Sequence record: OM982646
DNA from: Escherichia phage ST4
Strand: one strand, 5' to 3'
Length of the DNA stretch: 64,000 nt
Shown in pieces: positions 57,674 through 58,393 of the stretch; position 1 is the stretch's first letter, and every line of letters starts with the position of its first letter. The position numbers and the translations under genes were made by a program. The notes under the pieces were generated by a model. The model saw only the letters and a list, made by a program, of their open reading frames with translations. It was not told the DNA's origin and searched no databases.

Positions 57674-57747
57674 TGTCCACTACTGGATTTGAACCAGTGA
57701 CCTTCCGATTATTAGTCGGTTGCTTTCCCAGTCTAAGCTAAGCGGAC
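57674..57747 (-). tRNA. tRNA, apparent anticodon AAU (Ile?), no encoded CCA
   Basis: Hand-folded cloverleaf: 7-bp acceptor stem GTCCGCT/AGTGGAC (one G-U), D-arm GCTT..AAGC with GG, anticodon loop CUAAUAA, T-arm ACTGG-TTCAAAT-CCAGT. Confidence 0.7.
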
Positions 57748-57756
57748 AAAGTAGGA

Positions 57757-57829
57757 GTACCCGGGCAGGATTCGAACCTGCGTCCTAGTTAGTTTACTAG
57801 TGGGGCTTTACCACTAAGCCTACCGGGTA
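57757..57829 (-). tRNA. tRNA-like gene with atypical anticodon arm (anticodon undetermined; possible pseudo-tRNA)
   Basis: Perfect acceptor stem TACCCGG/CCGGGTA, D-arm GGCT..AGCC, T-arm GCAGG-TTCGAAT-CCTGC; anticodon region CTAGTAAACTAACTAG folds only as a 5-bp stem with 6-nt loop or 4-bp stem with 8-nt loop. Confidence 0.55.
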
Positions 57830-58269
57830 TCAATAGGTGAGTCATGCCAGGCTCTAACTGGCTCCTTCTTCGCAATCCTTACATACCCCTACATAATTAT
57901 TGCGTTAAGCTATTTTGTTTAAGTTTAAGTGAAGGCGTTCTTGCTGACTCATAATTGGGTGGGCGTTTGACGAATGACTAGTTCGTTACTACCCGTTTGC
58001 CATAAGTACCTGGCGACTTTGGTTTGAGATGGGAGTCCGAGTCCTGTACAGCCTTACCGTCTCCACATTGGCAGCGTATCTAGAATAGCACTTCCGGGTA
58101 CGGATTTAACTGTTACATCTCAAATATGGTAGGGGCGTCCAGAGGTTTCATCTGGTGCTTACGCCGTCGTATTTACGACTTACCCCCATAATTCTTACAA
58201 TTCAGAGTAACACTCACACAAGAATGTGTCTTTGAATACTGGGAAGTATAAACGAGTGCTACTTTGAAT

Positions 58270-58393
58270 TGGTTACCAGTGAAGGATTCGAACCTCCGGT
58301 TGGAGTCTATAGCTTACCGCAGCAGCCCTCCAATCTAGCGGTGTCACACTTAGTCCAAACTTGAGTATGTCAAGCCATCTCGTGCAACTGGTA
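58270..58393 (-). ncRNA. tRNA-like element: T-arm + 7-bp acceptor stem + encoded CCA, but ~121 nt between acceptor strands
   Basis: 3' end GGAGG-TTCGAAT-CCTTC-ACTGGTA-A-CCA (58270-58299) pairs perfectly with TACCAGT at 58387-58393; the intervening sequence does not fold into a canonical D/anticodon arm. Confidence 0.4.

Follow-up and report, generated by a model that had tools for sequence, protein, structure and literature searches.

A conserved 124-nt tRNA-like RNA and an upstream tmRNA-derived unit in the tRNA cluster of Escherichia phage ST4

Clusters of transfer RNA (tRNA) genes in phages are as a rule interpreted as supplements to codon usage, with any unusual member written off as a pseudogene. 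The described RNAs closest to the one reported here are the species 1 and species 2 RNAs of phage T4 (rnaC and rnaD), small stable RNAs of ~120-140 nucleotides (nt) that lie head-to-tail with phage tRNAs, are processed from a tRNA precursor and are not known to have a particular function. The present analysis concerns 64,000 nt of Escherichia phage ST4 (sequence record OM982646; this whole stretch is called the window) and, within it, three tRNA-type elements of the minus strand, a set that had been predicted from the sequence alone and each member of which proved to be real. The oddest of the three, element 3 (58270..58393; this and all coordinates below refer to the minus strand unless stated otherwise), is also the best conserved, and consists of the 'top half' of a tRNA, with no decoding part, and a fixed interior.

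Element 3 is like the T4 RNAs in its size, in its head-to-tail position with phage tRNAs and, when compared with rnaC, in a canonical T-arm near the 3' end (CCGGG/UUCGAAU/CCCGG in rnaC). In contrast with element 3, which has a 7-base-pair (bp) acceptor stem, A73 and CCA, rnaC as annotated has neither an acceptor stem of this length nor CCA, and the T-loop 11-mer is all that rnaC and rnaD have in common with element 3, there being no other homology. Element 3 defines an unannotated RNA family that extends across several phage families and is comparable to the species 1 and 2 RNAs. Within the model of the cluster proposed below, we consider it, with a probability of about 0.6, to be a functional, tRNA-shaped stable RNA whose interior has a binding partner.

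Two further kinds of system bear comparison. In MALAT1/mascRNA and tRNA-scaffold RNAs, cleavage by RNase P yields an upstream 3' end together with a CCA-ended tRNA-like RNA, and the tRNA frame stabilises an insert. The signals of MALAT1/mascRNA resemble those of element 3 in that a tRNA-like module, for which processing is here predicted, lies directly downstream of another RNA, although these systems are eukaryotic or artificial, unlike the phage element. The other is transfer-messenger RNA (tmRNA), two-piece (circularly permuted) forms of which occur in phages too (PMC9004378), as do mini-tmRNAs without a coding sequence, for example in mycobacteriophage DS6A (PMC11915505). Like the tRNA-like domain of tmRNA, element 3 has an acceptor stem, a T-arm and an ACCA end but no anticodon arm, and it is phage-encoded beside a unit with a putative peptide tag; it differs from that domain in lacking G3:U70, in having ~55 extra nt between a UUUGGAC motif and the T-arm, and in being undetected by tmRNA models or by ARAGORN.

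Structure and conservation of element 3

Read from its 5' end, element 3 (type A below) comprises the 5' strand of the acceptor stem (UACCAGU, 58387..58393), a stem formed by GCAC (58385-58382) and GUGU (58349-58346) around hairpin 1 (GCUUGA, a 5-nt loop and UCAAGU, 58359..58375), a 12-nt linker, and an arm with a 6-bp stem (UUGGAG/CUCCAA) and a 22-nt loop (58300..58333). The T-arm (GGAGG UUCGAAU CCUUC, 58281..58297), which corresponded to positions 46-63 of the tRNA model, begins 2 nt after the 6-bp stem and abuts the 3' acceptor strand as in tRNA; this last part (58270..58280) is made up of ACUGGUA (58280-58274), the discriminator A (58273) and CCA (58272-58270). The T-arm, the 7-bp acceptor helix and the encoded CCA had all been recognized in the original prediction, which was off by one base only in the register of the acceptor helix, and its statement that the interior does not fold as D and anticodon arms was borne out by the absence of either arm in tRNA geometry. 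The 22-nt loop contains a heptamer, C-U-GCG-G-U, that reads like an anticodon loop, and nothing varies there. The GCGGU of this loop could pair with ACCGC of the linker (58342-58338) as a pseudoknot, with which one G-U substitution is compatible.

BLAST searches with element 3 returned 45 phage records (39 from Escherichia and 5 from Klebsiella phages), the three weakest matches spanning the 3' end only. Identity was 94-98% within Gamaleyavirus and 87% in the KP8-type phages of Kaypoctavirus, and the block of conservation stopped at the borders of the element, beyond which the flanks diverged or were replaced. The element is annotated as an RNA in none of the 45 records, most of which show no feature at all, a few a 'hypothetical protein' and one a tail-spike coding sequence. 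A 19-mer from its core was absent from GTDB, taken as one genome for each of 185,579 bacterial and archaeal species, and was found only on phage-type (N4-like) contigs of ~70 kb in metagenomes and IMG/VR, which contributed hardly any new variation.

The 15 distinct 124-nt sequences aligned without gaps, the length of the element being fixed, and 99.8% of the cells in six helices were paired. Five pairs had changed on both sides, three of them in the acceptor stem (3:118, 4:117 and 5:116), one in hairpin 1 (21:33, from U-A to C-G in Klebsiella phages) and one in the T-arm (99:111, from A-U to G-C), whereas control alignments in which the partners were slid by 1-3 columns showed 31-43% pairing and 0-1 two-sided pairs. 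The 60-nt interior at positions 37-96 was almost invariant across two genera and more conserved than the stems, and the arm adjoining the T-arm was identical in all 15 sequences. With a covariance model of element 3, near-identical copies scored 155-160 bits, as compared with 11-27 bits for type B RNAs (see below) and ordinary tRNAs, in which only the acceptor and T arms were matched. In the window, exact copies of the T-loop motif GGTTCRAWTCC numbered three, every one of them inside this cluster, and modules that combine a T-arm (5/5 stem), a 7/7 acceptor stem and CCA were expected at a rate of 0.01 per shuffled window.

These RNAs are at present overlaid by annotation pipelines with spurious small open reading frames (ORFs), examples being Bas96, Mimir124 and nithesis. 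A protein-coding element 3 was considered and rejected: no frame is free of stops, and PBM-3, ECBP1, Bp4 and KP8 have a broken version of the only ORF to run across the element.

Established tRNA models also failed to account for the element. The Rfam tRNA model matched its T-arm only (12.1 bits, E = 6), and ARAGORN made no call at its default threshold, with or without introns, or in tmRNA mode. The perfect acceptor stem, T-arm and CCA had led to the suggestion of an intron-containing tRNA, that is, an interrupted gene spliced to a normal tRNA, and the intron mode of ARAGORN did return 'tRNA-Thr(ggt)' when the score threshold was lowered to 80%, but with a 45-nt intron that splits the anticodon. 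Moreover, when each stretch of 28-61 nt was removed in turn, 346 of the 1547 derivatives were called as tRNAs, but the anticodons assigned were of 17 kinds and the D and anticodon stems were poorly formed. Such calls show only the permissiveness of ARAGORN given a perfect acceptor stem and T-arm; no single excision restored a unique cloverleaf. The insert is also far too short for a group I intron, none of which was detected by Rfam, the interior surpasses the stems in conservation, and in type B RNAs the same frame surrounds a different interior. An interrupted gene is thus an extremely improbable identity for element 3, and the suggestion was not supported.

Somewhat less remote, yet still quite improbable, is the proposal that element 3 is a dead tRNA gene with a junk insert that has been conserved through close kinship, element 2 being a -1/+1 frameshift suppressor tRNA (discussed with that element below). 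The region is indeed full of degenerate tRNA-likes, and most Gamaleyavirus genomes are 90-95% identical across it. However, element 3 has kept its identity within that genus, and to a large extent in another, while its flanks diverged or were replaced, the conserved block ends at its borders, and compensatory changes have preserved its helices. Conserved, structured, noncoding, fixed in length and situated in a tRNA operon, element 3 is, by these comparisons, shown to be a genuine and previously unannotated tRNA-like RNA, in agreement with the suggestion of a tRNA-like noncoding RNA that had been made as the alternative to an intron.

The second type of long tRNA-like RNA, type B, emerged from a scan of relatives for modules with a CCA end, an acceptor stem and a T-arm and from subsequent BLAST searches. 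Its length is 127-140 nt and its acceptor stem UCCAGGA/UCCUGGA, and it occurs in Escherichia phage Jgk1, in an N4-like contig of IMG/VR (L045), in Pectobacterium phages Possum, Horatius and Arno152, in Klebsiella phage FKP3 (a 142-kb myovirus) and in Erwinia phage Gungnir39 (a 48-kb phage). In five sequences (Jgk1, L045, Possum, FKP3 and Gungnir39), which between them displayed seven compensatory pairs, the acceptor stem was followed by a stem closing a long compound arm, then by a GUCAGG/8 nt/CCUGAU hairpin next to the T-arm, the T-arm itself and (A/G)CCA. Types A and B are both placed in phage tRNA arrays and have in common the frame, a covarying stem of the GCAC/GUGU type and a conserved UUUGG that could supply an elbow contact, while their interiors differ. 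Phage swi2 has, at the position of element 3 (L143:1375-1470), a 13-bp helix around a T-arm (GCGG UUCGACU CCGC) with no free CCA end, which may be a related embedded form.

The upstream tmRNA-derived unit and its junction with element 3

The most surprising item in the neighbourhood is a tmRNA-derived, mRNA-like unit of 310 nt (58396..58705) that is common to all relatives and ends 2 nt upstream of element 3; it was not part of the original prediction and alters the context of that element. An 18-bp helix (58705-58688 with 58581-58564) that covaries richly between phages caps a hypervariable insert. It is followed by a PK1-like region, a resume codon GCA (58514-58512), the putative tag ANEEAYLMVA with its stop codon (58484-58482), and a covarying 3' hairpin (58426-58400) that runs into ACCA (58399-58396). 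The tag sequence, CAUAAAU GCA AAC GAA GAA GCG UAU CUG AUG GUC GCC UAA (ANEEAYLMVA*), has no in-frame start codon, and an in-frame UAG lies 24 nt upstream. In relatives, the corresponding tags included ANDDVVLMAA, ANDDVILMAA, ANDNVVLMAA, ANDNAYLMVA and ANEEMYLAVA. The final two codons varied (GCU, GCA, GCG, GCC, GUC, GUU) with free third positions, while the stop and the flanks were fixed, and a crude count of synonymous changes over the tag (25% in the tag frame versus 21% and 3% in the other two) weakly favoured coding. The case for a translated tag would thus draw mainly on the tmRNA-type context, on the fixed stop and on the variation in these last two codons.

Against the permuted-tmRNA model (RF04321/RF01850; threshold 47 bits), the unit scored 22.9 bits in the window and up to 34.7 bits in relatives, in every one of which the match spanned the pre-resume region and the tag. 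The genuine phage permuted tmRNA of locus L040, which has the resume context and post-tag elements in common with the unit, scored 100.9 bits, and ARAGORN returned permuted-tmRNA matches in L029, L040 and others. Features shared by beta-type permuted tmRNAs and the unit were CAUAAAU GCA AAC GA, a tag of the form AN(D/E)...(A/V)A, a post-tag hairpin and AUCAAANGACC. In true permuted tmRNA genes, however, what lies within the long helix is a T-arm, CCA, a loop and the 5' acceptor strand, whereas the helix of the unit encloses unrelated inserts, and no tRNA-like domain (T-arm, CCA, 5' acceptor strand) was found inside it. These inserts (58582-58687 in the window) measured 44-230 nt and came in at least eight unrelated versions between otherwise near-identical phages, and the apical insert looks like a replacement hot spot. 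In phages of the L124 type, the helix insert retains a lone T-arm (UUAGG UUCAACU CCUAA) followed by ACCA. Pairing of the 5' strand of the unit with its 3' end as an acceptor stem was tried and rejected, as covariation (C-G, U-A and U-G at two positions) favoured the local 3' hairpin.

BLAST with the unit returned 298 phage records, including members of Schitoviridae and Ackermannviridae (Det7, phiMAM1), the siphoviruses swi2 and Carvaje, and the P22-like phage HK620, and among the records listed the unit was unannotated in all but a handful. In HK620 (L142:1201-1640; tag ANEEMYLAVA*), it is part of the late leader, with pR'/qut on one side and the tQ terminator on the other, a position from which a short transcript subject to constitutive termination would be expected. 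The literature on tmRNA or tmRNA-like elements in N4-like phages and Schitoviridae yielded only method citations of ARAGORN, leaving the unit undescribed there. Even with element 3 excluded as its partner, a tag RNA that lacks a tRNA-like domain would, if under coding-type selection, call for a mechanism of a new kind.

ACCAAUU closes the unit (58393-58399) as well as element 3 (58267..58273), so that element 3 lies between two copies of this module border, which is also present at 2006-2012 of locus L017. Phage phiG17 has a single copy of ACCAAUU and lacks exactly element 3. An extra 66-nt tRNA-like (UCCGGUG...CGCCGGA-ACCA) is inserted at the upstream copy in PBM-3, UE-S5a, ECBP1 and Bp4 and is placed downstream of element 3 in KP8. 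The same junction, a hairpin with ACCA and AU followed by a long tRNA-like, occurs in Gamaleyavirus, Kaypoctavirus and L045, and in Jgk1 a window-type unit is combined with a type B tRNA-like. The common ACCAAUU ends and this pattern of insertion and loss suggest that the region is made up of cassettes exchanged by recombination at short stretches of homology.

The position of element 3 behind a tag unit raises the question of whether the phage has its own ribosome rescue and protein tagging. Element 3 might be the tRNA-like piece of a split phage tmRNA to which the upstream unit contributes the resume codon and tag; once aminoacylated, it would enter stalled ribosomes with host SmpB, the two RNAs acting together, either still joined in an uncut precursor or bound to each other non-covalently. 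In favour of such a division, the unit is clearly tmRNA-derived but is missing its tRNA-like domain, element 3 or type B directly follows it in three N4-like lineages, and element 3 has the required end, T-arm and lack of an anticodon arm; in addition, GGCUUGAC and UUUGGAC of element 3 resemble GGAUUCGAC and UUUGGAC of genuine phage permuted tmRNAs. Nevertheless, G3:U70, the alanine identity pair, was present in every genuine phage tmRNA checked and is absent from element 3, in which the equivalent pair (3:118, i.e., 3:70) is the most variable of all (C-G in 12 sequences, U-A in 2 and U-G in 1), and both the tmRNA mode of ARAGORN and the Rfam tmRNA models missed the element. If element 3 were charged, a synthetase indifferent to the anticodon would be the likeliest to do so; A73 is compatible with LeuRS, and the identity elements of AlaRS and SerRS are missing. 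The unit also occurs without a long tRNA-like in phiG17, N4-like phages of the L124 type, HK620 and Det7. Conversely, Possum and FKP3 have type B with no unit nearby, and the mixed pair in Jgk1 shows that unit and tRNA-like do not co-vary; nor was any convincing complementarity noted between the unit and element 3. We consider a split tmRNA in ST4 doubtful for these reasons, and hold the same reserve towards the wider proposal that the unit, in ~300 records, is the tag half of a new kind of phage trans-translation system whose tRNA-like half has become detached as element 3 and type B. Were it true, the two halves would be separate, shuffled modules, and a degron belonging to the phage, AN[DE]xxxL[MA][AV]A, would be added to proteins on host ribosomes that have stalled.

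A model of processing and function

In the model to which we give preference, with element 3 as a stable RNA in its own right, the small-RNA region (about 59.5 to 57.4 kb) would be transcribed as a unit and cut by host tRNA-processing enzymes. The steps proposed build on known recognition by RNase P, 3' exonucleases and the CCA-adding enzyme. Thus, the acceptor/T-arm half of element 3, together with A73 and CCA, would be recognized by RNase P at the 5' end and by the enzymes of 3' trimming or CCA repair, and the product would be a stable, CCA-ended RNA of 124 nt; the one RNase P cut would, in addition, generate the 3' end of the tmRNA-like RNA, whose sequence ends 2 nt before element 3. Processing and stability would depend on the tRNA half as a handle, and the nearly invariant 60-nt interior would be the working part, binding a host or phage partner, the invariance of this interior implying that the partner is sequence-specific. 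In the same cluster, element 1 would be a working tRNA-Ile, with AAU as the Watson-Crick match of AUU, the main Ile codon of the phage, and element 2 a non-decoding relic in decay.

Several observations weigh against this model. The internal helices of element 3 other than hairpin 1 never vary, so their pairing is predicted, and two metagenomic variants have a mutated CCA. As phiG17 does without the element, it is therefore not essential. With respect to element 1, an unmodified A34 is unusual in bacteria, and the homolog in Jgk1 (L018:2310-2443), in which the acceptor, D and T arms are kept, has ~57 nt in place of the anticodon loop, an insert indicating that the slot of element 1 is not always occupied by a decoder.

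Elements 1 and 2 and the surrounding region

Element 2 (57757..57829) has perfect acceptor, D and T arms but an anticodon arm that consists of a 5-bp stem (CUAGU/ACUAG) and a 6-nt loop (AAACUA) without U33. The claim that it cannot form the standard 5-bp stem and 7-nt loop was therefore correct, and of the two possibilities raised, an expanded or a contracted loop, the contracted one holds. ARAGORN reported the element as 'tRNA-???' with an unassigned anticodon (2-nt 'ac'), and the match to Rfam RF00005 (39.6 bits; threshold 29) skipped the entire anticodon arm ([18]). One base of the loop is U/C variable, the loop being AAACCA in relatives, and the 3' tail, which is ACCA in PBM-3, UE-S5a and nithesis and AUCA in KKP 3715, is CUCC in the window. 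Element 2 was present in 19 Gamaleyavirus records, as compared with ~40 for element 3, and was missing from many close relatives; it is dispensable and, with a mutated CCA in the window, looks to be decaying in this lineage. Distant homologs, unannotated and rejected by ARAGORN, were found in Enterobacter phage SABI (L151:401-478) and Klebsiella phage 05F01 (L152:401-478). These keep the D and T arms, have a UACCCGG-type acceptor stem (with an exchange of C-G for U-A) and combine 9-nt anticodon loops (AACUUAAGA) with an intact ACCA or GCCA. By this comparison, element 2 is one of a line of tRNA-likes whose loops are aberrant and differ in size between lineages.

Of the two roles originally offered for element 2, a pseudo-tRNA is the better fit given its absence from many close relatives and the change of ACCA to CUCC, and the element is most likely a non-decoding relic. 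The likeness to frameshift suppressors found no support, since the loop is contracted to 6 nt rather than expanded to 8, lacks U33 and has a variable base, and the CCA is decaying.

Odd tRNA-likes might also act in defence, and tRNA or tmRNA mimics that interfere with host translation control or with tRNA-directed immunity are the alternative that the cluster brings to mind. Phage tRNAs, which often differ from host tRNAs in the anticodon loop, escape anticodon nucleases when these loops are altered (PMC10264068), infection is rescued by phage tRNAs from retron and PARIS effectors (PMC11555353, PMC12409363), and defences that cut tRNA tails exist (PMC12851939). Elements 2 and 3 could accordingly be harmless tRNA-shaped decoys for anticodon nucleases, CCA-tail nucleases or modifiers of tRNA 3' ends, while element 1 replaces or bypasses a targeted host tRNA. 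The acceptor stem, CCA and T-arm kept by element 3 and type B, together with a conserved UUUGG that could form the elbow, are just what such enzymes see in a tRNA and would suit this role, as would the recurrence of odd loop sizes among the homologs of element 2, from 6 nt in the window to 9 nt in SABI and 05F01. However, there is no tie to any particular defence system, a simple decoy has no need of an invariant 60-nt interior, and element 2, far from being maintained, is disappearing from this lineage. A decoy function is thus unlikely, and in our estimation somewhat more so than a split tmRNA.

Element 1 (57674..57747), with a discriminator A and no encoded CCA, is a known gene, being already annotated in relatives as tRNA-Ile(aat) or tRNA-Xle. 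Both ARAGORN, which called tRNA-Ile(aat) at 57670-57748(-), and Rfam RF00005, to which it matched as a full cloverleaf (62.4 bits, threshold 29, model positions 1-71), bore out the earlier description of a good cloverleaf with anticodon AAU. The anticodon loop, CUAAUAA, has 7 nt, U33 and a purine at position 37. ARAGORN called the element in 12 of 13 Gamaleyavirus loci scanned, always with anticodon AAT; it was missing in PGN829.1 and PD205, and only its 3' part was left in Bas96. Acceptor pairs covaried among relatives (GTCCGCT/AGTGGAC, GCCCACT/AGTGGGT, GTCCACT/AGTGGGC), and the tRNA fold is therefore under selection. By inspection, the element has A35, U36, A37, A38, A73, C4-G69, U12-A23 and C29-G41, which we take to be the Ile identity set of E. 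coli, a set reportedly established by Nureki and co-workers in 1994.

Among Ile codons, AUU accounted for 59.5% in the window and for 64.5% on the strand encoding the virion RNA polymerase, and a Watson-Crick AAU decoder therefore fits codon supplementation. An A34 in an Ile anticodon is shared by element 1 and eukaryotic tRNA-Ile(AAU) genes, as in eukaryotic tRNA-Ile(IAU); bacteria are known to deaminate A34 only in tRNA-Arg(ACG). Another A34 tRNA of an N4-like phage, tRNA-Asn with anticodon ATT, was noted in Pectobacterium phage Possum (L147:740-814), and A34 anticodons may be a recurring trait of this phage family. The Jgk1 homolog of element 1, found in the same slot, is another variety of tRNA frame that carries an insert.

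The window is from a Gamaleyavirus (G7C/N4-like, Schitoviridae), and the 2.5 kb surrounding the cluster was 86-95% identical to Gamaleyavirus genomes over 75-100% of its length. The plus strand carries the virion RNA polymerase ORF of 3456 codons (46198-56568). The small-RNA region itself, ~2.1 kb of minus strand (59530 to 57400) downstream of the SSB-side and replication genes, has no conserved ORF and none longer than ~60 codons; the three elements form its 3' part, and it runs into a strong intrinsic terminator (57408..57439; a 13-bp stem followed by a U run) that is annotated as a terminator in PhAPEC5 and PhAPEC7. In relatives, careful annotations show nothing but tRNAs in this region, whereas automatic ones put 'hypothetical proteins' of 30-40 codons on both strands. 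On the 64 kb, ARAGORN returned exactly two genes, elements 1 and 2, and Rfam searches of the whole window, the region and element 3 alone returned two tRNAs and sub-threshold tmRNA matches, with none to element 3.

Minor observations were made at other positions of the minus strand. Just 3' of element 1, the segment at 57610-57690, with a hairpin CACUGG/UAAGACAGU/CCAGUG, was kept in seven distant loci. A conserved ORF-free block at 58130-58215, common to the window and Jgk1 (GGGGGUAAGUCGUAAAUACGACGGCGUAAGCACCAGAUGAAACCUCUGGACGCCCCU), folded on paper as nested hairpins and may be a structured RNA. At 36393-36568, a T-loop-like motif with a 7/7 'acceptor' partner and without CCA was at chance level (0.87 per shuffled window). 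Downstream of the terminator, an N4 gp48-like ORF (56852-57244) carries in Mimir124 the automatic label 'anti-CRISPR protein' (PHROG 'acr' category). Finally, ~190 nt that follow the last ORF of the upstream block (59340-59530) were kept in six distant N4-like contigs, and this conserved stretch may be a small ORF or another RNA.

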